From NCBI GenBank assembly GCA_030704615.1, contig CM060733.1, positions 39,556,001 through 39,620,000 on the forward strand: a stretch of DNA of 64,000 nucleotides. Direction: 5' to 3'. Positions 11,734-61,351 of this stretch are shown here, one piece after another (positions within the stretch are counted from its first letter, which is position 1; each line of letters starts with the position of its first letter). This stretch comes from Takakia lepidozioides (taxonomy: Eukaryota > Plantae > Bryophyta). The translations under genes were made by a program, and so were the position numbers. The notes under the pieces were generated by a model. That model searched no databases, was not told the DNA's origin, and saw only the letters and a list, made by a program, of their open reading frames with translations.

Positions 11734-11975
11734 TACGGAAGCCCAAAAAGGCCATACTCGTATACTACCCCGGAACATGGAATATTCTTGAGCCCGGGCT
11801 TAAGATTCCAAAAGCCCGGGACAAGATTCTCTTGCCTGTGGTGTGGTTGAAGAACATGACTCATGTCTTATGTACCCTAAGTAACCCTAGTTGACCAAGG
11901 GTCTAAGTATATACCATGTATTTAACTTGTATATCTTTAAAATACAAATAACTCGTATGTACCTAGTAGTTGTAC
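11734..11975 (+). repeat. Left terminal and subterminal inverted repeat of the IS3EU-like element
   Basis: 24-bp perfect TIR, then imperfect inverted similarity to 28225-28575 (AGCCCGGG / AGAATCT motifs, catgactcatgtc, taaccctagttgacc, gtacctagta). Confidence 0.85.
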
Positions 11976-13010
11976 CTCATAGCAGGAGCACGATGGCTGG
12001 ACCTTGGAATGCCCGAGCTTTCTCCAGGCAGGTTTTGTGGAGAGTCTGAGTAAGATTTTGGTTTTCTCCATCTATTGACAGTGTTGAGTACTCAACACAG
12101 GTGACTCCAAAGACTGTTGCTGATTCGGGAGGTTGGGCATGTATGTCAACTGAAGGCATCATTGAGGTGATTTGCAATTAAAATCCAGTACCTTGCTCTT
12201 GACCAGCTTTTTATCTGGAGATGTTTCTATCCATCATCACTAGCATGCACGCTTTCTCAGTAAGATAAGGTCCTTGCAGACGAGATGGAGATGACATATT
12301 GTGGACCAAGGATCCCATGTTTTCCATCTTACCCTTGAGATTCTGGTAATTCGCCAATTGGTACTCAACATTAGTGTTTAGCCCTGATTCAGTAGTCAGC
12401 AAATCTTGTGACCCCCCCTCGCCGTGTTTATTTGACCAGCTTACTTCAGGTCAGGTAGTGCATGGGTTTTAGTTGGAGAAGGGGTCTCTCCTTTAGAGTA
12501 TGCCTACATGGGCCATCCCCTATGGATTGATGATCTCTGAATGCCTGCACTGGCTTGGATGCTCAACAATTGGGCTAAGGTATGCCCTGTTTTTCATTTC
12601 TTGCCTGCTATAAATACATCCTCCTAATCCCCAGGCCGATTTCTGGTGATCTGTCTAAAGAATGCATTGACAGGTAGGGTCCCACATCAAGATATTTTCT
12701 GGGAAGCTTGACGCTTGACTGGTTGGAGAGGTACCTTAGACACAGGTGATTCAGATGATTCAATGTGGGGGCCAGAGGTAAGACGGTCACCCAAAACTGA
12801 CTACTACGGATGGCAAACCTAGTGGTAAGCCAAGCCCCCATGTGTATGCAAGAGTGTCATGTCAGTCAGATCTGGCTTTGTGTGCAGTGATGTGAACAAA
12901 GGATATGGCATGATTAGGCATTAATGGGTCAGGTTCTTTGCATGCAGGCTTTTGATCGGCTTGTGTAAAATGAGGATGCATTGAAAAGCTGAACCCAGAC
13001 CACAGACAAG

Positions 13011-13339
13011 TACTGCACTGATTGCAGGATGTACTCATCAAGCTTGGAGTGCCCGAGCTTTCCTATAAGCTGATTGCCAGCACGCAGCAACAGTCCGAGC
13101 AGGAAGGATCATATGATACCATCTACTATGCCAGAGCAGGAAGGATCTACATAGTCTCTTTGTCCCCTTGTTTGCCAATAGCAGAGTGTGTGCCCTGGAT
13201 GCATGGCAGGTGATCAACAGCGTCAAAGAGTGGTCTCATGTACTGCACTGATTGTAGGATGTACTCATCAAGCTTGGAGTGCCTGAGCTTTCCTATATGC
13301 TGATTGTCAGCACGCAGCAACAGTGCCCGAGCAGGAAGG
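13011..13339 (+). repeat. ~97-bp direct duplication (13011-13107 / 13241-13339) of an acceptor-led exon-like unit upstream of the transposase
   Basis: tactgcactgattgYaggatgtactcatcaagcttggagtgcc...gagcaggaagg occurs twice. Confidence 0.85.
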
Positions 13340-13359
13340 TTCTCCGTTGTTAGAGTACA

Positions 13360-15541
13360 ATGGAGCCTCAAAGTGACATGGTAGAGTATGTTCAGAGAAT
13401 GCTCAGAGATAGGGTCCCCTTAAAGAACATTGCTGAAGCATTGGGTATCCAAGATCTCAGACAATTGAAGAGATTCATGTCTAAAGCTTTGGGCCATCCC
13501 TTCAGGGTCTACCACCAATTCACAGTGGAAGAATTGTGCCAAAAGATAAGGGAGCTACTTCCGATTGAAGAAAACGGGGTAAATTGGGGTATCAAACATG
13601 TCAAGGTGGCCTTATGTAGGCATAACATCAGGGCTTCTGGACGGAAAGTAGCTGCTGCCGTGACAATCATTTCAGGTTACCATTACGATTGCAGGCGAAG
13701 CGCAAGGCGATTGCAGAGGCTTCAGTACAACGTAACATTGCCAATGGCACTTTGGCATATCGACTATGATTAAATTCTTTGACAAAAATCAAAATCTAAT
13801 AGTTTTCAAGAGTGTTTCCTATCTCTCATGCCCAGCATAGATATGAATATCTTTAGCCCGAAGGACTTGTCCCACTTCGAGTTGTTTCCTTTGGTTAGTC
13901 AATCCTTAGAGGTTGACAGTGCCCAGCCTCAAGCCAGCCCTTTGCATGTTGCCAGCCCCTTGTCGTCTAGGTAGCCTATGGTTGTAGAGAGACAGAGAGA
14001 GGGGGGAAGAGCATTGGAAGTTACAGGGGGGAGACCTGCATAGACCTGCATATAGACGGCACATACACCTTTCTTGTCACTTCCCTTTCAGGATATGGAG
14101 AAGAAATAGCGCACCTGAAACTCAAATGTAGCTATACCTGCAGTGAGGCCTGGAAGTACCCCCCTTACACACTTCTCACCTGCTGCCAAAACTAATGTGG
14201 TGGGTCTCCTGTCCCATTATCAGTTTTTGGCAGGGTGGTGACATCATGCAATGGCAGGTTCCTCCCACCCTGCCCCACTGTCAGAACAATCCTCATTTGA
14301 AGAGCCTTGAGGAGTGCCGTGGCCACCCAAAATCTCTAGGAATGGTTGTGGAAACATATATTGTCGAGGAGATAGACGGATGATGTAGAGTATTGTACAA
14401 TTGTTTTCAGAAAATGCCAAGCACAAAATTTCACAATATATTTGACTTGTTCGTGTTTGTTGCAGCTTATGATAAACTGGTGATGTATGGTCTTCGAGTT
14501 CATGCTGGGATCGATGGTGCTTCCCACTTTGTGCTACGGGCAAAAGTTGCTCGAGATAAGAAAAAACAAACAATCTTTGAAGGATACAATGAAGGTGTCA
14601 TGAAATTTGGACCTCCGTTAAGGATTCGATCTGATTTTGCAGCAGGGCATGTCCTCATCAAGCAACACATTGAGTCTGCACGCCCTGACATGCCCAATGG
14701 TGCCTTTCTGACACGGTCTTCCACCAAAAATCAAAGGATTGAGCATTGGTGGCGACACTTGTGGGAGAAGGTGATGTTCTTCTATAAGAACTGCTTTCAA
14801 GCTATGGAGGACAGAGGTTTGTTGGACAGAGATGATCCATTTCAACTGGAATCTTTTATCGCAATCTATCTTCCCATTGTCCAAGCAGCCGTGGAGGAGT
14901 ATGTGGGCATTTGGAATGCCAACCTTGTTCGTAGGATCAACAAAAATGGGCGTTTTCGTCTAATGCATGTTCCAGCTCGGTATTTCAAGGAGTATGAGCG
15001 TCTCCAAGGGTATAACCATTATCTCATTTGTTTTTTAACTTGTGTTTTGGTTGATCTGGTTCCTCTTCACCACATATACTATCTTCAGAGATGGGTTGAG
15101 CTTTCAACTTCCAGTTTGTAATTTTTGCACCAGCCAGCGAATCTTCAAAAGAGAGAGGGAGAGAGCTGAGAGGTAGGTTACTTTATTTTACATGTGTGAT
15201 GATTGAATTGTGTGTAGGTGGACCAGCCACATTGAGGATTTACATCATTTGGAGATAGCGATCACTTGGGGCCTCGTGGGATGCAACAGTGGATCACGCG
15301 AAATCGAGTTACACCTCCAAAAGTTCCCGAGCTTCCTCCAAATCTTGTTATATTAAGGGATGCAGCATATGAGACTGGAAAGGTCGGAAAAGACTCAGTG
15401 CAGTGCTTTCAGCTTCATTACTACTTATCAGGTTATTGTCATATTGCGACTCAAGCACAGATATATCTGGACAAAATTGATGTCACAGAGGTATGTGCAG
15501 CAAGCCAGGAGGCTCACCAGTTGCTGATTGCTCATAGGTAG
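13360..15541 (+). pseudogene. IS3EU-type DDE transposase (HTH plus integrase core), multi-exon, probably defective
   Basis: Exon A: LKNIAEALG (HTH), RRLQRLQYNVTLPMALWHID. Exon B from AG at 14465: YDKLVMYGLRVHAGIDGASHF, FGPPLRIRSD, SSTKNQRIEHWWRHL, YVGIWNANLVR. Triad is WHID / RSD / RIE. No GT donor follows WHID (gactatgattaa), which suggests a lesion. Confidence 0.85.
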
Positions 15542-17055
15542 ATACTGGCAAGAGTCGCAGCCTTGGAAAAGGCCAAAGAGGTTCATGGTGACTTATCAAA
15601 GCTGGAGCGATAGACCTCGGACCGAGTTTGGACGGAAGAGAGAGAGTTGACAGAGAACTGCAGGGCATCTCACCTTGAAATGAAATCACCATCACTATAT
15701 CAGATACTGAAAGTACGACAGTTGCCCGATTTCTCTCTTTCAAGGACAAAGAGAGATGTGTGGTTTGGTTATTCTTGGGCGCAGGCAGCTGGAGAGATGG
15801 GGAAGGAGTGGGTGGCTACAATAGCAGAAGGGGGTTCGGCAGGAGACTGGCTGAGCAACTCACTCTGCAGTGCAGGACATCAGGCCAATAACCTTGTGCA
15901 GCTCCAACTCACTGGCGCCCTCACTTCCGCCATGTTACTTTGTGTCCTGTGTTCAGTAGCCAGGGCAGTTCCATGTGAACACATTAAGCTGTGCTTGATT
16001 GTGAGCCTGGAGTGGGTGGTAGCTGGAATAGTGAAAGGAGCTTCAGAGAGCTTAGTTGTGAATTTGTCTATTGCAACTTCCATTGAGCTTTGAGGGGCAC
16101 ACTCTGATGCATTCTGGGTTTGTTGTCATTGATTTAGACTTGGCCAGTTTTTGGCTCCTCCATCCCATGCCTACAATGCAACTATCCCAAAGCTCTATAA
16201 TTTGCTGAACAAGTCTGGCTTTGGGTGAAGGGTGATTTGAATTCACTACTCTCCTTTACCTTCAACTTATGGCTTGCTGCAGCAATGGTGGGAGGGGGGA
16301 AGCTCACTACCTATAGTGAACTGCCATAGCTTATGAACTCTGGTTAGGTATGGACATTGTCTGGGTGGTTCTTTTGCCATTATTTCTATAATGCAATTGA
16401 GAGACAGGGGTTAACTATCAGTGGCGAGGGTGTGACAGTGTGGCCATAATTTTGGGAATGCTACTGTTTAGTTTCTGAATACCACAGACATTCTTGCTTG
16501 TTTCAACATAATGCAGCAATGTGAATGGAACTGCCCTTCCCTACATGCTTTTCAATGAAGACAAGGTATTGAATTACAGATCCTTCAAAAACTGTTTACT
16601 CTGCACACCCCAAAGTGAAGAGAAACATGACCTCTTGTCACATCTCCTTTGATGGCGCAGAAGTAATATATCAACGTTGTGCTGGAGTGAAATGTTGAAT
16701 TGAGAAGCTATCCTGGATGACACATTATTATAAGAGTATTTAATTAACTGCCAATTGCAGTTTCAATCTAACTCTGCCTGTGGGTCCTACCCAAATCCAT
16801 AGTCTAAAATCCAGTCTTACCAGCAGCTTTGTTAAGCTGCACCTGGTAAGCAGGTTAAGTACAAGTGCCCTTGATGGTGAGAGAGCACCACTAGACCTGC
16901 ACTCTAAAAGTGAAGGTGTCTTGTCCAACTGAGCTTTCAGGGGAAGGCACAATTCAAGTGAGCTTGATGCCTGGGAAAACGGGCCTTAAAGGTGCCTTTT
17001 GACATCTTTTCTATTCAATCCATACATGCTACAGTGTTGTCCTTATGCACACTTA

Positions 17056-19294
17056 TAGGGAATTCCAAAAAGGCCTTGATGTGAAATGCATCGCAATTCA
17101 CTTGATCACCCCCTAAAAGTGCGCAATTCAATTGAACTAACCCTAATTTGCAATTCAATTGAATTGTCGGCACACGATTCAATTGAATTGGGAATTGGCA
17201 ATTCAATTGAATCGCTAGTTGGCAATTCAATTGAATTGCTGACTACAATTCAATTGAATTGTAATCTATAATTTTTAACTTATTTCTGTATATAATATAT
17301 ATGTATATATTTAAATTATACATATATACATACACAAGTATAAGCTAAAAATACATGTTGCCCGTCTATTCTTGCTGTCCGTCTGTCAATGCTTTGCCCG
17401 TGGTAAGGCTTGAGCCCAAGATAAGCCTAAGGGAGAGCGAGAGAGGGAGAGAGATAGAGGGGAAGTCACGAAGCGCTTGTAAAAGCGGGATTGTCTCTCT
17501 TTGTGGATGTTGGTGCCAATATATGGCTAAGTACATATACCAAACATGATACCAATGTAAGAGTATCAACGTGTAAGAGTTTGATATATTAAACTTATAT
17601 AGAACACACATCCCAACTTCAACATGATACCTTTGTAAGGGTATCCAAATTTTTGATAATTCTCAAGATGAACATATTTTTTGTTTTCTTTGTCCTGGGC
17701 CAGATACTAGTGTTAGGGGACTACATGGTGATGCAGGGGAAGCCTTTCATCAATTGTCAGGTTTGATTTTGTCTGTTTTTTTCGGAGCCAGCCATGTTTC
17801 TTTTGCCAGTGAATCACAGGAAGCTGCTGATCTGTCTCCGTCTCTCCCTTTCTCGCTGAGGCTGAGGGTGGTTTCACAACTCCACAATTTCCTCAAGGGC
17901 ACAAGAAAGAGGGCCAGCAAGAATAGACGGGCAACATGTATTTTTAGCTTATACTCTTATATATGTATAAATATAATTTGAATATATACATGTACATATA
18001 TATTATATTATATATACAAAAAATAAGTTAAAAATTATAGATTACAATTCAATTGAATCGTGTGCCGACAATTCAATTGAATTGCGCACTTTTAGGGGGT
18101 TGTAGGGAATTCCAAAAAGGCCTTGATGTGAAATGCATCGCAATTCACTTGATCACCCCCTAAAAGTGCGCAATTCAATTGAATTGCAAGGGCAATTCAA
18201 TTGAAACTAACCCTAATTTGCAATTCAATTGAATTGTCCGCACACGATTCAATTGAATTGCGAATTGGCAATTCAATTGAATTGCTGACTACAATTCAAT
18301 TGAATTGTAATCTATAATTTTTAATTTATTTTTATATATAATATATAATATATATGTACATGTATATATTCAAATTATATTTATACATATATAAGAGTAT
18401 AAGCTAAAAATACATGTTGCCCGTCTATTCTTGCTGGCCCTCTTTCTTGTGCCCTTGAGGAAATTGTGGAGTTGTGAAACCACCCTCAGCCTCAGCGAGA
18501 AAGGGAGAGACGGAGACAGATCAGCAGCTTCCTGTGATTCACTGGCAAAAGAAACATGGCTGGCTCCGAAAAAAACAGACAAAATCAAACCTGACAATTG
18601 ATGAAAGGCTTCCCCTGCATCACCATGTAGTCCCCTAACACTAGTATCTGGCCCAGGACAAAGAAAACAAAAAATATGTTCATCTTGAGAATTATCAAAA
18701 ATTTGGATACCCTTACAAAGGTATCATGTTGAAGTTGGGATGTGTGTTCTATATAAGTTTAATATATCAAACTCTTACACGTTGATACTCTTACATTGGT
18801 ATCATGTTTGGTATATGTACTTAGCCATATATTGGCACCAACATCCACAAAGAGAGACAATCCCGCTTTTACAAGCGCTTCGTGACTTCCCCTCTATCTC
18901 TCTCCCTCTCTCGCTCTCCCTTAGGCTTATCTTGGGCTCAAGCCTTACCACGGGCAAAGGATTGACAGACGGGCAACAAGGATAGACAGGCAACATGTAT
19001 TTTTAGCTTATACCTATGAATGTATATATGTATAATTTAAATATATACATATATATTATATACAGAAATAAGTTAAAAATTATAGATTACAATTCAATTG
19101 AATTGCGAGTTGACAATTCAATTGAATTGCCAATTCGCAATTCAATTGAATCGTGTGCTGACAATTCAATTGAATTGCAAATTAGGGTTAGTTCAATTGA
19201 ATTGCCCTTGCAATTCAATTGAATTGCGCACTTTTAGGGGGTGATCAAGTGAATTGCGATGCATTTCACATCAAGGCCTTTTTGGAATTCCCTA
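17056..19294. mobile_element. Nested non-autonomous IS3EU-related element, inverted dimer (fold-back), 6-bp TSD CACTTA
   Basis: Ends TAGGGAATTCCAAAAAGGCC and its reverse complement; CACTTA at 17050-17055 and 19295-19300; a third TIR copy starts at 18103; mirror-image ORF pairs whose coordinates sum to 36351; many palindromic CAATTCAATTGAATTG subterminal repeats. Confidence 0.92.
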
Positions 19295-19778
19295 CACTTA
19301 ACTCTTGTTCAGTTAGGACCTACAAAAGTTCCACCCTTCAGCATATACAACGCTCCAGACAGATAAGAGGCACTATCTAACTGTCAACTGCAGCTGGACC
19401 ATTGACACTTGTACACACAACAATTGGGTGGTGGAAGCAGACAAAAGTACTATCAATCTTCATCCAAAATTTCTTAACCTCTTTTGCAAGACTACTAATA
19501 ATAATTATCTTTTATCTCAAAACTCATTTATCAATTTCAGCTTTGAATATTCCATTCATCCATACCAATTTTAATGTAAAAGATTCAAGAAAGCTCATTG
19601 TTCATCTATCAATTTCAACTTATGTAGCTTTGAATATTAAATTGATCCATACCAATTTGAACGTAAAAGATTCAAGAAAGCCTTCTTCCTCTTGCATACT
19701 GATTGTGTGGCCCTTCAGGAGCAGCAAGTCCATCAGCACATTTGTCAGCAGTGGATAGCAGGTCTGTAAGATACTAAG

Positions 19779-22700
19779 ATGGCAACAGAAGACATTGATG
19801 GCTGCAATCAAGAGGAGTCTACTCCACCTTTGCGGGTAGCTGTCTTTCCCAGGGAAATTCAGGCTAGAGGGCAGCAATTTGCCTTCCCCCCACGTTTTGG
19901 ATCACCTACAACACCTTCTACTTCTAGGCCACGTACTCCCCGCCCTAAACAAATTGGCAGGAGGATTTACTTTTGGCCCAGGTCTGCCCAATGGACTCAA
20001 ATCAAAGGCATACTGGTACCTCTTTTGGTTGAATGGCCAAAGGACCTCCCCTCAGTGCTAGTATCTCTTCCTGCATCAACTATTTGGGGAGGGTTCACTT
20101 ACCCAGAGCCATTTTCAGTGGACAGTGTAGAGTTCCAGGTTGCAAAGTCGTTTTCAACTCCTCCAACTGCCTCGGGCCTTTTTTTCAAGAGGTCAAAGAG
20201 ACCACAAGGATCAGCCCCTCATAGGGGCTACATCCTCCAGCCCTACCGGTGTGAGGAGGGAACCTGTTGGGGCAAATTGCCATCCCAGGCCTTTGTCATC
20301 TATTGCCCAGACCCCACTACTATGCCAAGGGAGGGGGTTGCCGCCTATACAGAGTTTCTACGACGCCCCATTGACCCTCCTGGATCTGAAATAGTTGTAG
20401 CTGGGTCCAATCACCTGCAAGCATCTCGTCTTCGACTTCAACGGCCACCTCCATTTCATGGACCTGCAACAACAGACAACTCCGATGATGATTTTGAAGA
20501 ACTGATGCAGGGACGCCCCCGACCTCGGCTCATGGTGACAGGTTCCTCTTCTGATGCAAGTGCATCCCAGCATCCTTCGATTGCTCAAAGAACTGGGCAG
20601 GGTACCTCTAATTCCATCCACTTTCCCTCTGAATCTAGGTTTCTCTTGCATCCAAGTCTAGAGGGAGCTTCACCTGTACATGATTTCGGAGCCACATCTT
20701 CACAGGGAGACAATGACGTTGTCCACTTGGGAGATGCACCCATACATATCGACATCCACCTCTTCAACTTGCAAGAGAGGTGGGTCGAGTGTCAGGATGC
20801 TTACTTTCAAGCCATAAATGAAAAACAAGCCCTGGACAAACATCACGACTCTGACCCTCGTGATGAAGTCAGATCTAAAGCATTTTGGGCCGCCTTCACA
20901 GACTTTGAAAACTTTATGAAAGTATGTCAAGACCTTACTAGGAGGCAGTACCTGACAAGAGGTGTGGTGAGCACTGAGGCTCATCTCACCAAAGTGGTTA
21001 TGCACCCCACTATGAGTATGTACACACCTACTGATATTCGGCGGGAGTTTGAATTGAGGGCCAGGCCTTTCTGGACTAATTGGGATGACTTTGAGGCAGC
21101 AATGAAGCGTATCACCGATGATGTCATACGTGCCAAAGCGAGTTCACTTGTTAACACTTATGGGGGAGGTTCTGTTAGAACAGGCCAGGATCATGCCTTG
21201 GCGCTGTTGGATGTTGACACAATCCTCCAAGATCCTGCCTTCACTAAGTTCACAACTAGGTCTTATGTGTAGGCCAACCACAGAAAACAGGAGGGAGGAG
21301 GAATCTTCTTTACTTGATGCCCGAGAGAAGGTAGATGACGCGTTGCTGGCATATCAACGCTACTATCTTTCTCACACTGTTTTTGAAGGCTACAACCATA
21401 TGCTCAGGACCTCTACACAGATTCAGGACACACATATCCAGGTACATGTGTACTACTATGTGGCATATGCCTACTATGCCACCACTCTGGTTTAAGCCAA
21501 TCCTTGACTTCCTTGCTCAGACTGGTTCATTCATGATGATCAATGCCTACCGCTACTTTGCATATAGGGATAACCAGAAGGTCATTCCCATTGATTCTGC
21601 AATCCTAATGAGCCTAGGGCACATTATTCTGACTACTTTTAATGCCTGTTTTATGCTCTATACGTAGGTACACCAAGGGCGGGAGTTTCTAATATTTGCC
21701 ACACACTGGGGGGACGGTTTGCGCACCAACAAACTCTGCTATAGACCAAAAATCAACTATGTTCACGGGAGTGGAATAGAAGAGATGGGGACAATTGACG
21801 AGAATGGTTTGAGAGATAGTTGGTTGACGAACATTTGGAAACAGTTCTGGTCCCTCCCTTATGTAAGAATACGCTCCCTGCCCACTAGGAAGCCTAGGAA
21901 GCCCCTTCTAGTTTGAAGTGCCCATTGTGCCACAACTAACAGAGGGAAACCCAAAGAGACAAGAAGACAACACAAAAAATAGATAGCGAGAGCAAGATAC
22001 CTTTCATGAAGGAAAGAGATGAGCCAGCATTGGAGGTTGCAAAGGACAACAGTGAGGAGCCAGCCAGTAGGAGGCTGCCACCACTGCCACCACTGCCCCC
22101 TGATGATGGTGGCGTGGTGTTGCCAGTGGCTGAGGTGCCCATACCCATAGCATCACCATGTGCATCTTTAGTTGTGGGCTTCAGACCAAACACGTGAACT
22201 GTGCCTTTGTCACTGGAGAGCCCCAGCCATTGAGCATTTGCTGAGAAAGCGATACTGTAAATGTTTTGGTCAGCTCCTCGCCGAAGCTGCTCACAAAACC
22301 ATAGGGCTCTTTAGTATCTCTACAATAACATACTTCTATATCCCTTCTATGACTGTCAATCCATTGGCATCACAGCCAATCATGGTTGGTTTGCTGTCTT
22401 TCCTGAATGCAACATGGAAAGAAAGATTACAACAATTTTGGTTGGTTACAAGGAGTTCACTCATCTAAGGATCACTTTGTTTTGCTGGCGATGTACTGTT
22501 TAAGTTCCCAATGTGCACTTCACTCTTAAAAGGAAGCGCTCACTTTTTTTTATATCAGAACCAGCAGTTGGGGTGAGACTGACAGATTTCGATATAGAGA
22601 ATTGCATCTACAGAGTGAGAGAAAATGTGGCTGGTGAGGAGGGAGAGGCAAAAAGACAGACTTGTGGATTTCACTACATTTCTTTAATCTCCAAGGTGTG

Positions 22701-23991
22701 CATGTGGACAGTTGCTTGTGTGCATCAAAAATTCAACCTTACTGATATCTTTCATCAGGGACCTCTTTCATCTAGAGGTAGCTTCCAAGAAGGCTAGGCT
22801 GGGGTGTGTTACTAAGTGTTTGGTGTGGGGGTCCCTTGCAGAATCATCAAGGGATATTTGAATATCCTGATAACAACCACGGAAAAATCTTGCATCCCAA
22901 GAATGATGAAGATATCTTGAGGCATGAGCAAGTAGACACGGTAAGTGCCATAATCAGCTACATCTTTAAGTTTTTCAAATCAGCCATGGTAAATTCAACT
23001 TATTTACGTTAATTGTAACTGATGTGCACATTGTGTCATCCACAGGCACAGATGCTAGGACACCTCCTCTTCATGATTGCCTCATGTGGACTGGAGGTGT
23101 CTAGATACTTTTCATTTGCAACACTGCTGATGATATGTGATCAAGTCCCTTCTTCAATGGACTAGTCAAAGGGGGTGTGTCCCAAGCTCCGCGGAGACTT
23201 GGAGCGGGATTTCAGATTGGGACTTCAAAATGGTCATTTCTTCAGCAGCTGCGCAAATCTAAGAACTATGAAGCTGCGCAAGAGATTGTCCACCAACTGG
23301 CTGCAAATGAATTGAACGAGGACCTTGGGTGGAGTTTTGAAAGTTTCAAACTGGATGAAGAAACTTGGCCTTCACAGGTATTGTCTTATATGCAATGAAA
23401 ACAAATGCATAAAAACAATATTTGTGCTTCAATTGCTTTTGATTGATATTTTTTGTCTTGATTGGTGGCTTCTAACAGGTGGAGGATAAGCTAGGAGCGA
23501 TTGTGTACAGTCACCTTTTCAGTGGAAGGGAGACGGTAGGGAAAGCCCTACGCGAGGGCTTTTACATGTCAGTTGCAACAGCTCCAACGTCCCAAGCAGT
23601 AAAGGAGAAATTGAAGGATTGTCTTCGAGACCGTCTGAGCCCCGAGAACCTCAGGGTGGTCTTCAATGGCGCTTGTGCCATTGAGGCACAAGACTTCCTA
23701 AGGAAATGCAACTTTTGCTCGTCTGTGGATAAAACACAGCAAGACTTTTTCAAAAGTTGCATTGAGAAGATGACCTACACCGAGCGATCGCGCCTCTCTG
23801 TCTTCATCACGGGCCTCGAGTACTTTGGAGGCAAGGAGATTACCATCGACCTGTTAAACAGGATGGACGAGCCATGTGTTCAGGCGTCCACTTGTCTTTC
23901 ACAGCTGTATCTCCCTCCTTACAAGGATGCGGACACAATGCTGAGAAAGATGAAGTACTCAACTATGGACACTAGCTATGGGAGACCTTAG
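19779..23991 (+). pseudogene. Transposon-borne HECT-domain E3 ubiquitin ligase gene, multi-exon, with frameshifts
   Basis: Last exon: ERSRLSVFITG...VQASTCLSQLYLPPYKDADTMLRKMKYS..SYGRP (HECT C-lobe with catalytic Cys). N-lobe-like EEMGTIDENGLRDSWL at ~21780 and IFEYP...AQMLGHLLFMIA at 22855-23080. GT-AG introns 22941-23045 and 23378-23478. A 497-aa N-terminal ORF precedes the domain; frame breaks near 21270 and 23165. Confidence 0.8.
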
Positions 23992-24177
23992 ATTTGCGTG
24001 CTGCCAGCACAAAATGGGGAAGGGCTTACCATAGCCAGCTTGTGAGTCGTGTGACTGGCCTTGGCCTCCTTTGACTGCGCATAGAAGGCTGTATACACTG
24101 CCGTAGCCTAGGTTGATTCCCCCACTGTCACCTGTAGCCCTCTACCTTGCAGCACATTGAGAAAACAATTGCTGACC

Positions 24178-24690
24178 TGTAAGCGCTGTTGTGTGTTTCC
24201 ATCCACATAAAACCTGCCACCCCAAATCAAGGGCGTACATAGCATAAGATCATTTGGTAAGCATGGTGGTGTCTGAATCATTGTTTGGGTTACTTGCTTT
24301 CCCCACTGCCAGAAGTCTTTCAGGTGAAGCAGCCATTTGTTAAGGGTCAGGGAGGCCTCATGACATGGATGGAGCTGTCAGAGGCCGTATTCATTGGAGT
24401 CCCACATGTACAGCTCGCCACGCCCTTAGATCACCACACAGAAGAGCAAACTGATCCATAGTAAAAGATATCATAAATAGGAAAGAGAAGAAAAAAACCT
24501 ATAGTACATTCCAATGCATGTGCAAAACTTCCCAGGCCTTTCTCAGCACTAGCCCCATGATGAGGACACCAAGAATGTGACTTACAGGTGATAGCGCCCG
24601 TGTGGTAGCCACCGCAAGAAACCTCCACAACAGCAGGAAGGGCAGGCACTTGGACTGCCTCCCTCTTTCTCTGTGTCTGAGACAAAGTTC
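24178..24690 (-). pseudogene. Captured RCC1-repeat gene fragment (2 exons plus intron)
   Basis: VQVPALPAVVEVSCGGYHTGAIT|gtaagt, then GELYMWDSNEYGL* and QVLCGWKHTTALT. Confidence 0.75.
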
Positions 24691-24856
24691 AAACGTCTCT
24701 CTTCCCCTCAACCCTAGGAAGTAGGTTCCAAGGATCATCTTATGACAGCCCTACAGATAGGTCTAAACAGATAAAACTTCAGCAAACAAAAGGAAGCCAT
24801 ATCCATAAGACTGAGAACAAACATCCAATTGACATGGTCAGAAACCAGTGACCTGC

Positions 24857-27667
24857 CTCATTGCACATTTCACTGGATTTTATGTACTCCCCAAGCTTCT
24901 GCTAACACGCAGCCACATTGAGAAGCAATGAACTCTGCCAAAAATTACTGCCTTGTTAGCGCCAGACAATCCACACTTGCATAATGGTGATCTCTTGCAT
25001 GAATTGCTAAATGCAACTGGCCAAAGATCTCCCACTTTTCTTGAACACACATGCATTACCAAGGGACATACATCTTTATTAGTTCAACCAAATAACAAGG
25101 GAACAACAATCCTAGAAACCAGCAACAATCACCTGGCTCTTTACAAGCTCCTCACCTTCCTCATCATTTTGTGGATTTACATGCTTGAAATCCGTAAGCC
25201 CCAGTTACGGCCATTAGAAGGTGTCCACCTTCAGACTACACTTGAAAGACCAGGTGTGGAAAATTGTTGTGTAGAAGTTTTACACACGTAAAGCAGGTCA
25301 CTAAACTGGTCACTGATTACCTTATCATATTTGGCCTTGGCCACCTCAAACTTGGCTTCCTTGAATAGCCGGTTTCCCTGCACGCACATTTGCAGAGCAT
25401 CACATACAGCATAAAGTCGATCTCATTCAGGCACAGAACATCTCCAGCAATTAGTATGTTGGTTTCCTTGCACCATCACTGAAGACAGCCTAAATCAGAT
25501 CTATACGCTCCTACTTCATACAAGAAAGTAGTAAAGTGAGTATAAAGGCATACCGTGGATTTGATTGTATCCACTTCAGCCATTATTTCTTTGAAATTGA
25601 GGCCTGTCCAATCCTGCCACCACAAAGAGTTAGCTTAAAATTCCGCTCATTGATGTTTATCATTGATAACATGAAGCAATCTTTCTATCTTTCTAAGGGA
25701 CCAGAAACTACCTTTGTAAGGGGCTCACTCCGGTAGTATGACTTACCTTGATACAAACAATTAGTTCGGGTTTTCCAGATATCGTCTAGGAAGCCCTTCA
25801 AACAAGCATCAATCTGCTGTGTGTGAGCAGCCCAAGAGTTAGACTCCGACAGGGCCAGGGCTTTAGGCTCAACCTCAAGATTTTGGAAGTTGGCAAACAG
25901 AGGTGCCAAGACATTGTCCTGAAGAGGGTCACTCTCTGGTGAGAATATCCCGGACACTATCAGAAAATGGATATTGTCTTCAGGTTGCCCACACATCAGG
26001 TGATTACAATCTCCTCTTCCTCTCTGCATCTGTTTATTGTTCAAGGGTAGGGTCCTGCCCTCAGTTAAAATTTCAGTCCAGTGCCAAGGGTAGGTATGCC
26101 CTTGAGATCATCCTTAAGGTCTGCCCATGTCACAGACTGGAAACAAGTTCAGGGAAGTTTTATGCCTAACTTCATTTTCATCGGACAGCCTTTGGGCATC
26201 AGACATGGCTTTGGACACACCCCCCTCCAGGTCAGCTTCATCCAGTAGGGTCAATTCATCAGGACTGATATTCAGATACTTGAAAATCTCATCCACCTTT
26301 TCCCGCCAAGACTTGGCCTGTTTAACAGGACTGTCTAGCTTCCGATAAATAGATTCGATTACCTTAGGGTATCTGGTATTAGGCATGCGATTCAACCGAC
26401 CCCACCATCTGACCTTGAATTCATCACGTCGAGAGCTTAAGAGAGGTACGCCAGATGCACCCCGAACAGCCACATTAGCTGTTCTAGAACAAGCCGACAT
26501 GCTTTCTTTGAGCACTGCGGCCTGAATGGATTCTAGGGATTTAGCATAGTTGGAGTTGTCAACCCACACAGCAGATGCATGCTCCAAGGCCGGCCTTATA
26601 ACATTACAAGGATCAGCACAGGGTGAGTGTTGAGAGGCCCAGTCTCAAGCCTGTCGAAGATTAGCGAATGTACTCATCAGACGTTGCTTGCCTACGCCTT
26701 GTGGCCATAGACTCCACGCCCAGTTTGCGCGAAACAAAAGGGAACAGGCACTACCTTTGTGAGGGGGTCACTAGAGAGAGAGAGGAAAAGAGGAGTGAAG
26801 AACTGCACCAATGGTGTACAATTTTCCTGGAAGTATAGCCCGGCTTGAAAACTATCCAGAGTTGGCTAAAAAAACCTATGAAAGTACCTTCAAAGAAAAT
26901 ATTTCGCCTTCACGATCACAGTCCAGCCATAGCACCGCATCCACGTGCTTCTTGTTGCAGATGCTTACACACATGAGCCTGCCTTCATGCCAGTGTTCCA
27001 TATGTTAAGAGGAAGCAAGTATTCACTCATTATTTCCCAAATATCATTTACATTAGGAAGCCAACTCTGCTACTGGCATCCAATTCATTAACTCCATCTC
27101 ATCTAGCCTTTCCTTAGTGATGATAGAACTGATGACACGTGGCTTGAAGCAAATGGTGTCACTGGATTGAATGGTTGTATCTTTTCCAACCAACTACAAA
27201 TATTATGTAAACAGCAGATTCAAACAATAAAGGGTAACTTTAGTGCAAAACTTATCTACCTATCTATCTGGAAATTCCTTATTTGACAAGTGACTTCATG
27301 GCCTGCAGTGACTCTTCTATTTTGAAACAAGAAAAGCTGATGGTACAATAAAAATGATACAAATCCAGTGGCAGGAATTCAAATCTTTCTATCTTTCAGG
27401 AAGCAATTAACTGGATAAGGCCAACTGGCAGAAGAATTGAGTGTGGGAGAAAGGGTTGATAAGCCAAAAAACCACCAAAAATTGCATAGATTATTCAAGC
27501 ATGGACAGACTGTGGTCTGAGCTGTGAAAGGAAACGCTGGCCCACAGACTCATGTAGATGAGTATAAACAGTAAATGCACTAATGTAAATGGATGACCTT
27601 GCGTGTTTCAAATCCTAACAATTCCACCTCCCATTGCACTGAAGCCCCTTCTGGAAAAACTTCTGGC
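24857..27667 (-). pseudogene. PAS1: Captured genomic fragment of a PASTICCINO1/FKBP72-like immunophilin (5 consecutive exons)
   Basis: Exons 27667-27598 PEVFPEGASVQWEVELLGFETRK; 25613-25554 DWTGLNFKEIMAEVDTIKST; 25377-25321 GNRLFKEAKFEVAKAKYDK; ~25200-25133 DFKHVNPQNDEEGEE; ~24934-24857 LLLNVAAC*QKLGEYIKSSEMCN. This follows the FKBP-to-TPR junction of plant PAS1 as I recall it. One in-frame stop. Confidence 0.85.
25685..26600 (-). mobile_element. 5'-truncated non-LTR retrotransposon 3' fragment (RTEX/L2-like post-RT region plus Cys/His knuckle) in the PAS1 intron
   Basis: LEHASAVW...LESIQ...TANVAVRG..G...LSSRR...VRWWGRLNRM..RYPK, then LRAG.LPLN..MCGQPEDNIHFL. Confidence 0.7.
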
Positions 27668-28224
27668 CTGCACCCAATCAATTTGTTTCCAGTTGCAATC
27701 ATGGAGCAAAAGATAGCATGAGAGATCCCACTCACTAAAGTTTTAAAAATTGACCTTCATCTTTGTAAAGGACGTCAACCGCAATTAGACATCACGAGCT
27801 GGATTGGACACCAGCGTTGAGTTGGGAATTTGTCTGCAATGATTTGAAAGTGAGCCACATAGAAGTCTTCCCAGAAGAATACCTGGGAAACTTTTCATAG
27901 GCGTACTTGGAGACACTGTTAATAAGAGCAAGCTCCCCTGGAAGCATCAGTCGGAGACTCGTTTCAAGTCCTCAGGTACCTGCAAAAGCATACAGACAAC
28001 GGCTCATCCACAGAAGAAGTACATCAATCAATTCAATGTCCACAATGGTCACAACACTTATAGCAAAGACAGAAACTGTAGGGTTGCAATCCTGTAACAC
28101 TTGCTCCGCACCTTTCCTGGAACCAAAGTCACGGGAGAGACAAAAACGATTACCTTTAGAAAAGCCCAAAACTAACGCCTTGTCTGTTAGGGCAGCGAAC
28201 TCCAACTCAACATACACGTACTTG

Positions 28225-28575
28225 AGGTGTACTAGGTACAGGAGAAATATGCAGTGTATATGTTTAGATATACAAGAAGTATACGCTGACCCAAGGTCAA
28301 CTAGGGTTAGTTACGGGACATGAGACATGACTCATGTTTTTCATCCAAGTCCCCGGGATGGGAATCTTATCCAGAATCTTAAGCCCGGGCACTAGAATCT
28401 GTCCCGGGCTTTTGGAACATTAAGCCCGGGATAGAGAATAGTTTAAGAATATTCAAATCTTTTGGCCCGGGGCTAGAGAATATCCTAGAGAATTTTAGAA
28501 TCTTATGCCCGGGCTAGAGAATCTTGTCCCGGGCTTTTGGAAAATTTACTAGTATGGCCTTTTTGGGCTTCCGTA
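28225..28575 (-). repeat. Right terminal and subterminal inverted repeat of the IS3EU-like element, with more CCCGGG/AGAAT motif copies than the left end
   Basis: agtatggcctttttgggcttccgta end; about seven cccggg motifs in 28351-28533. Confidence 0.85.
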
Positions 28576-28585
28576 GCTGGCCACA

Positions 28586-30487
28586 GGCCTCGGCACTAAG
28601 TCCCAAGCCATTTCAGGATAGTGCCGTGGCCCGGGCTCCCGTGCTCATGCCCAGGCTGGCTTGTTCCTGGCTCCCTGCCACCCTCCTGATCGCTGCCCTG
28701 CCTTCTAGCTAGCTCCCTGCCACGTCGTGATGTAGCTAGATTAGATCTAGATGTCAAACGAGATACCATAATCACAACTTTGGGCTTAACCCTTAAGTTC
28801 CCAAGCGACTCACTTTGAATTTGCAGTTGGACCTAATTTTTGCAGATCTAATCTGATGGGGCCACTCCTGAAGCTTTAATGACAAGGGATTTGTCTCGAG
28901 TATGATGCAAAAAACAAAATTGAAAAAAAAACAAAAGCTACGACCTACAAAGAATATCTTAGATCTCTCATTTCCGTTTTGGGCCTGAAAAGGGCTGTTG
29001 ACCGCTGACGTGGCAGGTAAACAAGCCCAAAACAGATTGCACTCCAAAGGCCATTTTTGGCAGAAAATTAGCAATTTTGGAAAAAGCACTTCACCTTGTG
29101 GTGTGTGAGCATTACATACACACATCCACCATTGGCTTTTAAAAAATTTGTAGAAAAAAAAGTACTTCATTTGGAGGCACATTTTCTCTTGTCAATTTTG
29201 AGATGTAATTGCATGCATAGCAACCATAAGTGAAAAAATCAGTTGGACCTGCAATTTAGTGGGGTCATAGCCAACTCCACTATTGATTTGGAAATGGTGG
29301 GTCTTGGGGCAAGCAAAATTGGATAAAGCTAGGTTTTGATTTGGTCAAACCTATTTCTTTCTCACTTTTTCGTTGGGACCTAATATTTGAGGTCCGGGCC
29401 AACGCTATAATCTCACAATTTCCACGGTGGACTTGGCTCATTTTTTGGTATGTCATGCATAAATGAGCTGGGCCCATTGCTATAAGGCTGGAATCTGGGG
29501 ATGATTTTTGGTAGGTTTCTAGGGGCAATTTACTCCAGCTGGGTACCCAAAATTGGTAAAAAGTCAAAAAAGGGCTTGGGAACTTAAGGGTTAAGCGGTT
29601 CTGCCATCCGAGCTGCCATCTAGACTGGGTTGTGGGGTGAAGAAGTCTGCTTGCAAGCAGGGTGCAGGCAGTGGAACCACTCATAGTTGCAACCCATCAA
29701 AGTTCAAGCTGTACATGGCCTTGGGAGTCAGCCCTCGGGATCAAGCTTGTCAAATAAGGTAATCTACGAGCCCGCTGCAGGTATCAATGAGATGAAAACA
29801 CTCGTCAACAGAAGACGTAGAAGGACGGGACGGTTGGACCTCGGTTGGTATGATCGTGTCAATCTAATTCCTGGAGAGTGCATGTCGAATTCGGGGGCCA
29901 TCACCCTTTCTCGTCCAAGTCCAGACTCCAGACATCTTGAACATGAGGTCAATGGACTAACAGAGACGTCCAGATTCATAGTGCACAGTTTCTGAAGTGG
30001 GAGCTGTTGATAGCTTCACATCCATCCTGCACGTCTGACTTATCACACTCTCTAACTCGGAAAAGTAGTAAAACTCTCTAAAGTTGGTCTTCCTCCAGAT
30101 CTTGGTGACATATCTGTTCCCGACTAACCGGTCGAAGAAATAACTTCGTGCTCTTGAAAATGAGTCCTTCAGAATAAAATGCTTATAGACCCACCGGGTA
30201 ACGGGTTCTTCTTCAAGCGAGTGCGTTGGCTTCCATCACTGCCTCCTTATGGGAAACTGGGACCTGACAAGAGTAACCTCTTGCAGTAATAACTTGCTCC
30301 AATATGATCGGCCTGGTGTTGGGCGTCGACATCAAGCGGAGCCCGCGGGCCAGCAAGAGCGCATGGGCACGTCGCAGGGGGAGCTAACCTGGCAGCGGGG
30401 CCAGCCAGCAACCCAGCCCGGGCATGAGGACGGGAGCCCGGCCCGCGGTACTATCCTGAAAATGGCTTGGGACTTAGTGCCGAGGCC
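28586..30487. repeat. ~95-bp GC-rich inverted repeat pair (28586-28680 / 30390-30487)
   Basis: ggcctcggcactaagtcccaagccatttcaggatagt is exactly complemented by actatcctgaaatggcttgggacttagtgccgaggcc; imperfect similarity continues for ~60 bp. Confidence 0.8.
28790..29590. mobile_element. piggyBac-like non-autonomous element (801 bp)
   Basis: TTAA|CCCTTAAGTTCCCAAGC ... GCTTGGGAACTTAAGGG|TTAA: 17-bp perfect TIR, CCC..GGG ends, TTAA on both sides. Confidence 0.82.
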
Positions 30488-33715: not shown

Positions 33716-36301
33716 TTACCAATAATCCCCACAAGAACACACCCCATTCTTGAAGTGATGGAAGCGATTTGAATCCCTGGCATAAATTTCTCGCCCCACA
33801 ATCATAGAGATGAACTTGGTGGCTGTGTGACAATCACCACACACCCTAAGGTTCTTGATTATGCGTATAGGTGTCCCAGGGGGTGTACTTATGAGCCCAA
33901 AAGCAATGGCCAGCTTTTCGCTGTGGTGGCAGAGAGCCTGTTCTTTTGTCTGCAGATCCACATCATGCAAGACCAAGCTTGCATCTGGCGAATACCCGGC
34001 CTCCTTTATCTGCCCAGTCACTCTGTCCAACTCAGCATATATCTCCTCTGATTGGGGGTGGGATCTATCTTCTGCAACAAATGTGTGCATAATGTTCTTG
34101 ACTTGAATCCAGCTGCGGCCTGGCTCCTTCTTCACACTTCTGTCCGTCATCACTTTCCTCACTTTCGCTACATCATCCCACCTCCCTGCTACAGAATAGA
34201 TGTTTGAAAGCTGCACATACACTGAAGCATTTTGTGGTTCCAACTTAAGGATACATTCTGTGGCGCGTTCTGCTAGTTCCACATTGCCATGCATCCTGCA
34301 AGCACCAAGCAAGGCCCCCCATACTGGAGCATCTGGTTCAAATGGCATTTTGTTGATCAAGTCCTCAGCCTCATCCAAGTACCCCGTGCGGCCAAGAAGG
34401 TCAACCATGCAACCAAAGTGCTTTCCTGTTGGTGTGATGCCATTGTATAGACCCATAGAACTAAAGTAATGACAACCTTCCTCGATTAGGCCCCCGCGGC
34501 TGCATGCCAAAAGTACACCAAGAAATGACACGTCGTTTGGCTTCACCCCTTCTAGATCCATCTCTTCGAAAAGGTGGAGGGCCTCCTCAAAAGGCCCATG
34601 TTGCGCATATCCAATAATCATCGCATTCCATGAGACCACGTCTCGTCCCAGAATTTTGTCAAACACTTTCCTTGCATCCTCCAAACTGCCACACTTTGCA
34701 TACATGTCGATAATGGCATTCTGCACACAGACATCTGATTCACATCCAGATTTTACAATGCAGTCATGGACCCGCTTGCCCTCTTCCAGGGCTGAGAGAC
34801 TCGCACACGCATTCAAGACATTAATGAAAGTGACCTCATTAGGCTTCACACCTCGTTGTTGCATGAGCTGAAAAAGTCTGATTGCCTCTGCACCATGCCT
34901 TTCCTGAGAAAATCCTGCAATCATTGCATTCCAGGAGATCAAATCTCGGATAAGTATTTTATCAAAAACTCTGCAAGCATCCAGTACACTGCCGCACTTG
35001 CAGTACATGCTGACAAGGGCAGTGCCCACTCGGACATCTGACTCGAATCCAGATTTTATAATGCACACATGGAGCCCCTTGCCTTGTTCCAGGGCTACTG
35101 GGCTGTCACATGCATTCAGGATGCTCACAAAGGTGATTTTATTTGGTTTAACAGTTTGTTCCATTTGCCAAAATAATTCAAAAGCCTCTGCACTATGCCC
35201 TTCCTGAGCAAGTCCTGCAATCATCGCATTCCATGAGACCACATTTCGCACAGGCATTTTGAAGAAGACTCCCCGAGCATCCACCAGTCCCCCGCACCTG
35301 CAATACATGCTGACAAGGGCATTTCCAACCTGAATATCTGACTGAAATCCACCTGTATTGATTTTTGCATGGACCCACTTCCCCTGTTCCATAGCTGCGG
35401 GGGAGGCACATGCATTGAGGATGCTAATGAAAGTGACCTTGTCAGGCTTCACTCCTGCTCCATGCATTCTTCTAAATAGCTCGAATGCATCCACACTACG
35501 CCCTTGCTGAGCAGATCCTGCAATCATCGCATTCCATGAGACCACATTTTGTTCAGGCATTTTGAAGAAAACTTGGCGCGCTTCCACCACACTCCCACAC
35601 TTGCAATACATGCTGACAAGGGCAGTCCCCACTCTGACATCTGCCTCCAGTCCAGCTTGGATGATCCTCTCATGGAGCCGCTTGCCCCGTTCTAAGGCTG
35701 CCGGGCTAGCACATGCATTAAGGATGCCCATGAAGGTGATCTTGTTTGGATCCACGCCTTCCTGTTCCATTTGCTCAAAGAGTTCAAATGCACCTTGCTC
35801 ACCATTACTTTGCTGAGCTAATCCTGCTATCATCGCATTCCATGAGATTATATCCCGTTTCGGCATCTCGTTAAACACATCTCGGGCATCCTTAACACTC
35901 CCGCACTTGACATACATGCTGACAAGGGTATTTCCTAGAAAAACGTCTGGCTTGAATCCACTTTTGATGATGTGGGTATGGACTTCCTTGCCGTCTGCTA
36001 AAGCTTTCGTCTTAGCAAACCCTTGCAACAGACGAGCACAGGTATCGGAATACGCCCGGAAGCCTTGTTCCTGCACTCGATCCAAAACGTGGAGTGCTTC
36101 CTTCTCCTTGCACCCCACGCTCACATCCCCGACGGTTCGAGATGTACCGCCTCCCTGCGTTTTTCTACCCCTTCCAATAGCAACAGTCAAAATGGTGGCA
36201 GTGCCAAGATTCCCGTCCTTGCTCCGACTATGATGCTGAACAAGACAAGTGTTCCAGACTTGAAATCCCCCCTCCCTGCACGATACACATCCGACGATCA
36301 A
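33716..36301 (-). CDS. PLS-class PPR protein with E1/E2 and DYW deaminase domain (organellar C-to-U editing factor); true start uncertain
   Basis: Repeated P-L-S triplets (VVSWNAMIAG / PNKITF.SILNACAS / DVRVGTALVSMYCKCG), PG box KKEPGRSWI, HSEKLAIAFGL, KNLRVCGDCH, terminal HHFKNGVCSCGDYW; uninterrupted ORF. Confidence 0.95.
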   Translation of the reverse strand: MIVGCVSCREGGFQVWNTCLVQHHSRSKDGNLGTATILTVAIGRGRKTQGGGTSRTVGDVSVGCKEKEALHVLDRVQEQGFRAYSDTCARLLQGFAKTKALADGKEVHTHIIKSGFKPDVFLGNTLVSMYVKCGSVKDARDVFNEMPKRDIISWNAMIAGLAQQSNGEQGAFELFEQMEQEGVDPNKITFMGILNACASPAALERGKRLHERIIQAGLEADVRVGTALVSMYCKCGSVVEARQVFFKMPEQNVVSWNAMIAGSAQQGRSVDAFELFRRMHGAGVKPDKVTFISILNACASPAAMEQGKWVHAKINTGGFQSDIQVGNALVSMYCRCGGLVDARGVFFKMPVRNVVSWNAMIAGLAQEGHSAEAFELFWQMEQTVKPNKITFVSILNACDSPVALEQGKGLHVCIIKSGFESDVRVGTALVSMYCKCGSVLDACRVFDKILIRDLISWNAMIAGFSQERHGAEAIRLFQLMQQRGVKPNEVTFINVLNACASLSALEEGKRVHDCIVKSGCESDVCVQNAIIDMYAKCGSLEDARKVFDKILGRDVVSWNAMIIGYAQHGPFEEALHLFEEMDLEGVKPNDVSFLGVLLACSRGGLIEEGCHYFSSMGLYNGITPTGKHFGCMVDLLGRTGYLDEAEDLINKMPFEPDAPVWGALLGACRMHGNVELAERATECILKLEPQNASVYVQLSNIYSVAGRWDDVAKVRKVMTDRSVKKEPGRSWIQVKNIMHTFVAEDRSHPQSEEIYAELDRVTGQIKEAGYSPDASLVLHDVDLQTKEQALCHHSEKLAIAFGLISTPPGTPIRIIKNLRVCGDCHTATKFISMIVGREIYARDSNRFHHFKNGVCSCGDYW

Positions 36302-36619
36302 TGCCTAATTTTGTTGTCGAGACCAGCTTCTTCCCTGTTCATTCTGTGTGATCGAGACTGCAGAGAAGAGGGATGGAAGTAAAGCATACCGAACACTCCG
36401 GAGTCGGCGATGGCAGCCCATCGCAGCAGTACCCCCTGGTAGATGTTGAGCACGGACTGTGGTGCATGGTTGATGCTGCGAGCATCCTCTTGTTCACAGA
36501 TCTCTCAAACAGACACTGCACACCTCGCTGCACGGAGTGGTATATACAAAACATTCCCCGTTCTCCCAACACATCAAAGGGACTCCAGAAAAAAAACAAA
36601 TTCTTACTCGGCTACTTAA

Positions 36620-61021: not shown

Positions 61022-61351
61022 ATGCAACAAGAAGGTGCAAAGCCAAGCAAGATCACCTTCCTGAGCATACCTGCAGATGCATGCGCTAGCCTAGTAGACC
61101 TGGAACAGGGCAGGCAGGTCCACCAAGGCATAAGCAAAGCTGGATTTGAGGCAGATGTCCATGGGGGAACAGCCCTTGTCTATATGTATTGCAAGTGTGG
61201 GAGTCTGGAAAATGCACACCAAGTGTTTGATAGGGTGTTCAGCCAAGAAGCGGTCACATGGAGTGTCATCATCACATGATATGTCCACCATATGTGTGGG
61301 ATTGGGGCTCTGGAAACCTGTGAGCAGATGATGTGGGTGGCAATGAAGCCC
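61022..61351 (+). pseudogene. PPR fragment, 5' part (inside the inverted segment)
   Basis: KPSKITFLSI..ACASLVDLEQGRQVH..GTALVYMYCKCGSLENAHQVFD, ending ALETCEQMMWVAMKP. Confidence 0.85.

Follow-up and report, generated by a model that had tools for sequence, protein, structure and literature searches.

The window analysed here is a 64,000-nucleotide stretch of the moss Takakia lepidozioides (GenBank assembly GCA_030704615.1, contig CM060733.1, positions 39,556,001 to 39,620,000 of the forward strand). Within it lies a DNA transposon of the IS3EU/GingerRoot kind, and between the terminal inverted repeats (TIRs) of this element is a gene for a HECT-type ubiquitin ligase. A sequence-only reading had described a divergent HECT E3 gene at 19779–23991 and proposed that it is a long-resident gene of a mobile element. 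Below we describe the element and the gene, compare them with related loci, and consider what such a gene would do for a transposon.

A HECT gene between the ends of a transposon

The element, its transposase and the exons of the ligase gene are as follows.

11734–28575, plus strand: IS3EU/GingerRoot DNA transposon with nested inserts, 16,842 bp, with TAC..GTA termini, TIRs and a target site duplication (TSD)
11734–11921, plus strand: left TIR and subterminal repeats, half of an inverted-repeat pair
28270–28575, minus strand: right TIR and subterminal repeats, the other half of the pair
13360–15610, plus strand: integrase-type transposase gene, damaged, about three exons (13360–13764, 14466–15010, ~15218–15610), Pfam rva_4 match E 2e-27
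19779–21441, plus strand: ligase exon 1, with a probable beta-rich domain, a low-complexity linker, a probable helical domain and the run-in to HECT
21668–21862, plus strand: ligase exon 2, HECT N-lobe start, collinear with related locus L001
22842–22940, plus strand: ligase exon 3, collinear with L001
23046–23377, plus strand: ligase exon 4, which carries lesions, collinear with L001
23479–23991, plus strand: ligase exon 5, N-lobe end and C-lobe with the catalytic Cys and the −4 Tyr, Pfam PF00632 match

Each end of the element has a 25-nt perfect inverted repeat, followed by patchy subterminal similarity further in, and both flanks carry the 6-bp TSD GCTGGC (flank repeats of lengths 2 to 11 were tested, and otherwise only a 2-bp repeat was found). 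We assign the element to IS3EU/GingerRoot because it has the TA..TA ends and the 6-bp TSD by which the literature characterises this group (PMC10045372, PMC6839031). The TIRs and the integrase-type DDE transposase are also as expected, and the element contains captured host gene fragments, a trait of a share of GingerRoots. The transposase has a DD35E triad (D–E spacing 35) and its core tracks the DDE query printed in PMC6839031 motif by motif, in a comparison made by eye. By these marks the ligase gene's host element is a known kind of plant transposon. The transposase gene lies upstream of the ligase gene on the same strand, in a tandem arrangement. The window transposase is damaged: its intron-1 donor reads AT where the related locus L009 has GT, and stops are present in the last exon.

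Modelled with five exons and four introns, all of them GT–AG and phase 0, the ligase is a protein of 937 amino acids with X at the breaks. Three of the introns are fixed by L001, an intron-poor relative with an uninterrupted 376-amino-acid HECT frame that is collinear with exons 2 to 5, and the first intron is fixed by locus L005. A candidate 60-nt exon at 21521–21580 was dropped, since L005 runs directly from exon 1 to exon 2. At the first intron (21442–21667) an identical 7-nt word spans both splice sites, as in insertion-born introns; L001 has an acceptor at this position, and L005 has no intron there.

The HECT gene is real. Its last exon matches Pfam PF00632 with E 9.2e-12 and 45.6 bits, against a curated cut-off of 23.9, so the profile check that the sequence-only reading had called for came out in its favour. 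The same holds for its account of the C-lobe, as exon 5 reads ASTC..LYLPPY and the protein ends in YGRP. HECT E3 ligases are known for an aromatic residue at the −4 position. Of the relatives of the gene, 18 of the 19 that cover the column retain the catalytic Cys (the count leaves out the window row, four rows ending before the column and the misaligned P0012), and 14 of the 17 that reach the C-terminal end have the −4 aromatic (additionally leaving out the truncated P0008 and P0026). Both are retained in relatives down to about 25% identity.

Further into the domain, a profile of the family aligned to six unnamed ordinary HECTs at 99.3% over 236 columns, starting at L001 residue 100, and matched 75 solved sequences at E ≤ 0.01; L001 as a single sequence matched solved HECTs weakly, with a best E of 0.006. 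The Pfam match covers only model positions 172–303 of 306, even for the intact L001 frame. The claim that the N-lobe start and GT–AG introns are recognisable thus holds for the introns, whereas the N-lobe start (residues 1–100 of the L001 frame) falls in the expected register but scores 15.5, below the best of 50 shuffles (17.0).

Contigs of four sequencing runs (at most three samples from three studies) were aligned to 19350–25700. The window copy has lost 8 nt at 21252, where contigs of all four runs carry 8 extra nt, and 39 nt in frame at 20919, where all four carry a net 39 extra nt. It has also lost 4 nt at 23219, present as extra letters in all three runs with coverage there. Frame arithmetic shows that the 8 nt of the sister sequences restore the frame, and the N-terminal open reading frame (ORF) and HECT therefore fall in one frame within one exon; exon 4 is rejoined in the same way by the 4 nt. 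On this arithmetic the N-terminus is part of the ligase and not a separate ORF. It had been expected to splice to the HECT exons, which is not so, as it shares exon 1 with the HECT run-in. A TAG stop at 23163 in exon 4 is the third disruptive lesion of the ligase. With two frameshifts and a stop, the HECT reading frame is interrupted in the window and this ligase copy is therefore a pseudogene; together with the damaged transposase, the window copy is dead. Breakage near 21270 and 23165 had been predicted, and breakage there is, although the sites differ: the first is the 8-nt loss at 21252, and the second resolves into the TAG at 23163 plus the separate 4-nt loss at 23219. In both putative RNA runs the match of long contigs breaks off at 21353 and leaves 55 letters unaligned; exon 1 of the transcribed copy may be interrupted by an insertion at that point.

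Relatives, linkage and the N-terminal half

A search of 1.84 billion representatives returned 47 matches, the best five with 44–48% identity over the C-lobe, and those checked had no informative name. The close relatives of the ligase cluster apart from six ordinary HECTs with support 90/82, in a tree without a named UPL and with groups assigned by us. Searches for C-lobe relatives among longer proteins gave none in 258 candidates, and with the family patterns neither the 63 candidates from viral contigs nor the 53 from prokaryote genomes included a relative.

A metagenome scan yielded 10 loci out of 162 pattern matches. Four of these match the transposase, three match the N-terminus, and two (L004 and L010, which represent one element) match both in order, running from the transposase N-terminus through ligase N-terminal residues 66–196 and 306–445 to HECT, in the order and strand of the window. 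L005 has the N-terminus and HECT, L008 and L009 have the transposase and a C-lobe remnant, and L001 and L002 are too short to judge transposase linkage. Locus L003 carries a repetitive K/P/M/R-rich frame (3506–4620) immediately upstream of its HECT C-lobe remnant. When the whole element was compared in translation with L009 and L010, only the transposase and the ligase gene proved to be common, and no captured host exon is shared.

Against L001, L002, L005 and L010, the proportion of nonsynonymous differences (pN) was 0.33–0.38 in HECT and 0.43–0.44 in the N-terminus, with a synonymous proportion (pS) of 0.78–0.97, and identity by codon position between the window and L001 was 0.61/0.70/0.39. 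Nonsynonymous divergence (dN) was highest in the N-terminus (0.64–0.67), followed by HECT (0.43–0.52) and the transposase (0.38–0.39). Selection has thus maintained the ligase gene over long times, but the closely sampled copies are decaying. We regard the ligase as a core gene of the element and not as recent cargo, because the order of transposase, N-terminus and HECT persists in a distant family, at saturated synonymous sites and without the captured exons. The gene's position between the TIRs fits the same view, as the sequence-only reading had proposed. We are highly confident both that this is an IS3EU/GingerRoot-borne HECT gene and that it belongs to the core of the element.

The N-terminal half had been described as a novel region of about 500 residues lacking the ARM, IQ, UBA or ubiquitin-like features of plant UPLs. 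The absence of these features was borne out, as the 497-amino-acid ORF (19779–21269) matched no Pfam family at E ≤ 0.1, and so no ARM, IQ, UBA or ubiquitin model. Its layout is a conserved domain at about residues 60–200, a low-complexity linker and a second domain at about 305–490; in a low-confidence model the former is probably beta-rich and the latter helical. The N-terminus matches the related loci with 72.4 bits, against a maximum of 26.9 in 100 shuffles. No homologue of the whole ORF was found among 7,995 candidates of 273–870 amino acids, and of 397 candidates for a profile of the N-domain three were relatives, each of which belongs by its sequence to the L005 type. The same profile gave no match in a PDB sequence search, and a plasmid search gave no notable match. 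As for novelty of the fold, AlphaFold2 (AF2) models were too poor to support that part of the claim, with pLDDT (predicted local distance difference test) values of 34.9 for the 491-residue N-terminus alone and 33.4 for the first 202 residues with 9 alignment rows. The proposed fold searches on these low-confidence models (best E 0.18, best Z 4.1) are uninformative on fold novelty.

An Atlas search with window residues 1–215 gave a best score of 0.86, to an unnamed entry. For the relative P0070 a similar search led to trypsin-like (S1) proteins with a score of 0.92, sharing just 88–100 of 256 features. This trypsin-like lead was not supported: hhalign against eight bacterial trypsin-like domains, a narrow and mostly HtrA-type profile, gave 0.2–0.3%, within shuffles, and no GxSGG-type nucleophile motif was found in alignment A7. 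Among the frames scanned there was no Pfam match to SAM, RING, PHD, TET or the RNA:DNA hybrid-binding domain.

Captured exons, nested inserts and the rest of the window

Further features of the element and its surroundings are listed here.

17056–19294, no strand assigned: nested non-autonomous TA..TA element, 81-nt perfect TIR, 6-bp TSD CACTTA
22001–22286, minus strand: captured ATG18/WIPI-like WD40 exon in ligase intron 2, spliced into antisense RNA, WIPI4 structure match E 3e-5
24030–25613, minus strand: block of captured host exons, supported by RNA joints
25554–25613, 25321–25377, ~25133–25200 and ~24857–24934, minus strand: TPR/PAS1-like exons, weak TPR matches, best E 0.017
24586–24676, minus strand: RCC1-like exon, RCC1 match E 9e-4, below cut-off
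24030–24213, minus strand: exon without family assignment, supported by RNA joints
26888–27010, minus strand: captured topoisomerase-III-like Toprim exon, weak matches to Toprim (E 0.098) and TOP3B (E 0.16)
33719–36304, minus strand: intact PPR-DYW gene, 862-amino-acid frame, Pfam match

The captured exons are joined in antisense RNA. Two of the runs, X5 and X6, are putative RNA runs (guessed as RNA, and neither covers 23590–24013, a gap that does not speak to expression), and they alone show joints with CT..AC plus-strand ends, equivalent to GT–AG introns on the minus strand. At least eight joints or loose ends, among those listed, resolve in this manner, and several are seen in both studies. 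The order in the antisense RNA is the Toprim-like, TPR, RCC1-like, unnamed and ATG18/WIPI-like exons, followed by the antisense of the N-terminal ORF at 20463; the Toprim-like exon is linked to a TPR exon within one RNA contig. The chimera as a whole spans 19516–27010 on the minus strand, with exons from about five host genes and alternative joints in the putative RNA of two studies. It may act in silencing of the ligase gene or of the parent genes. No long frame was found in the two paths we built (the longest, 123 amino acids, is in the second path). The antisense RNA may derive from sister copies.

We call the TPR exons PAS1-like after the name given by the sequence-only reading, which had treated them as a capture next to the ligase. 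Weak TPR matches are what supports that name. In keeping with a recent capture, a DNA contig of 4,943 nt aligns to the TPR region over 398 nt, differing by 29 substitutions and 42 gap letters, and is likely the parent host gene of these exons.

The nested element at 17056–19294 sits 485 bp upstream of the ligase ATG, has an inverted dimer architecture with 24-bp subterminal repeats, and points to recent GingerRoot-type activity in the genome. A second inverted-repeat pair (28576–28663 and 30409–30461) starts directly after the right TSD, and the IS3EU/GingerRoot element seems to have landed in the terminus of a different TIR element. Within the element, 25688–26644 on the minus strand holds broken frames without a Pfam match that are skipped by the antisense RNA and presumably resemble the 3′ end of a long interspersed nuclear element. 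At 13007–13324 is a duplicated 88-nt piece, 76–80% similar to the PPR gene near 35500 and probably a captured PPR fragment.

The DNA of the window is plant-type, with the PPR-DYW gene and a DUF1005 gene. At 2–1102 and 4720–5496 are a DDE-like frame and a convergent Myb/SANT frame (E 8e-4, below cut-off), which are likely to form a PIF/Harbinger element. Remnants of long terminal repeat retrotransposons (weak matches to rve, RNase H and zinc knuckle) and a transposase-like frame without a Pfam match at cut-off lie at 39509–40832 (minus), 49365–50231 (plus) and 61094–62566 (minus).

Proposed function and comparison with known systems

HECT ligases take ubiquitin from an E2 onto their catalytic Cys and pass it to a substrate. 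In intact ancestors of this element, an active ligase of about 950 amino acids would have been charged with ubiquitin at its Cys by a host E2, and the N-terminal domains would have selected the substrate. We speculate that this substrate was the element's own transposase, either removed after strand transfer or held at a low level; the phage Mu transpososome, whose removal is driven by a protease, provides the analogy. The family would later have acquired host exons, now read as spliced antisense RNA across the ligase gene. A ligase kept together with a transposase must serve the element, and it is likely that the element used the host protein-tagging system to help its own movement. That the transposase was the substrate is our first-ranked proposal, and by this analogy a tentative one to which we give a little less than an even chance.

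Several observations weigh against this picture. Seven of the 10 metagenome loci are three copies of one family, 87–93% alike, and the linkage of transposase and HECT therefore amounts to one independent case. L003 matches the C-lobe only, without a transposase in its 4.7 kb upstream, and a search for TIR pairs in L003, L009 and L010 was negative. The pN/pS blocks were picked by protein similarity (tblastn), which favours low pN. A comparison among copies had been suggested as a check on selection, and it came out two ways: in contrast to the deep comparisons, close copies are about neutral, with a dN/dS near 0.8 (L005 against L010, dN 0.045 and dS 0.055), and among the coding differences listed in the reads 6 of 20 are synonymous against 22% expected (p = 0.28). 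RNA junctions, also proposed as a check, gave antisense splicing of the captured exons and no sense splicing of the ligase: none of the 13 joints listed corresponds to any of its four introns, and putative RNA contigs cross their donors unspliced. The N-terminus has no SAM match in Pfam.

A different use of a core ligase, ranked second and distinctly less probable in our estimate, is to degrade a host protein of silencing or defence, for which the N-terminus would be a rapidly evolving receptor. The N-terminus does diverge faster than HECT or the transposase, but this fits weak constraint equally well. In fungi, IS3EU elements have TET/JBP genes, for which a role against methylation has been proposed (PMC12730594), and GingerRoots are methylated (PMC6839031); Pfam and profile searches of our element found no host target or chromatin-reader domain. 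A bolder version, which we consider unlikely, is that bryophyte GingerRoots encode a HECT E3 outside the six plant subfamilies, whose N-terminus of undescribed fold recruits a host silencing factor in a virus-like ubiquitin counter-defence, with the antisense captured exons as a route of loss.

We give little credence to the gene being passive cargo that descends from a host HECT captured long ago, such as one of the domain-less subfamily IV of plants. GingerRoots do capture gene fragments (22 of 77 elements in PMC6839031) and this element has several; the close copies drift neutrally; and subfamily IV has no named N-terminal domains (PMC3712016). Yet the captures in PMC6839031 are fragments of 84–1,654 bp, 79–98% identical to their parents, whereas the ligase is a whole gene. 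Its protein is also conserved beyond the point at which synonymous sites saturate, and persists where the cargo exons are absent, and the separate grouping of its close relatives (90/82, no named UPL in the tree) argues in the same direction. An equally improbable reading is that of a HECT-fold accessory protein which keeps the Cys and acts as a scaffold or binder. The short Pfam match and an N-lobe start that does not rise above shuffles would suit it; the retention of the Cys and −4 aromatic in distant relatives and a profile match reaching well into the N-lobe speak for a ligase. The reading that we prefer remains a core ligase directed at the element's own transposase.

Both this class of element and its capture of genes are already known. 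GingerRoot was described from Selaginella lepidophylla and mosses (Cerbin et al. 2019) and is known from Bryopsida and lycophytes (PMC6839031). The Takakia element shares its TA..TA ends, 6-bp TSD, integrase-type DDE and captured host gene fragments, but is 16.8 kb long (partly through nested inserts) compared with 3.9–12.9 kb, and whereas GingerRoots show little expression in S. lepidophylla (PMC6839031), captured exons are here spliced together in putative RNA. It likewise shares TA..TA termini and a 6-bp TSD with IS3EU (Kojima and Bao 2023, PMC10045372), and the rust IS3EU ends TAYGG..CCRTA fit its TACGG..CCGTA. Second genes exist in IS3EU, namely TET/JBP and alpha-kinase genes (PMC10045372; Kojima 2025, PMC12730594). 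The terms HECT, ubiquitin and ligase are absent from the accessible text of PMC6839031, and HECT and ubiquitin from that of the main texts of PMC10045372 and PMC12730594 and the supplement of PMC10045372, although Repbase entries may annotate a second protein. In the literature searched we found no HECT gene in IS3EU/GingerRoot; Repbase, subscription journals or bioRxiv supplements may record one.

Plant HECT ligases (UPL1–8, subfamilies I–VI; Marin 2013, PMC3712016) have the same C-terminal HECT domain with a catalytic Cys, fall into six host subfamilies and are described as evolving very conservatively. The ligase here differs in lying inside a transposon, in its length of about 940 amino acids, and in having no match to ARM, IQ, UBA or ubiquitin, the N-terminal domains of UPL subfamilies I, II, III, V and VI (by sequence profiles, with a remote fold match possible). 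A transposon-borne clade with a retained Cys and an N-terminus without assignment would add a selfish lineage to the HECT family, and the ligase would give GingerRoot a second core gene. Such a gene would also make it possible to ask directly whether a DNA transposon aims host ubiquitination at its own transposase or at the silencing machinery of the host.

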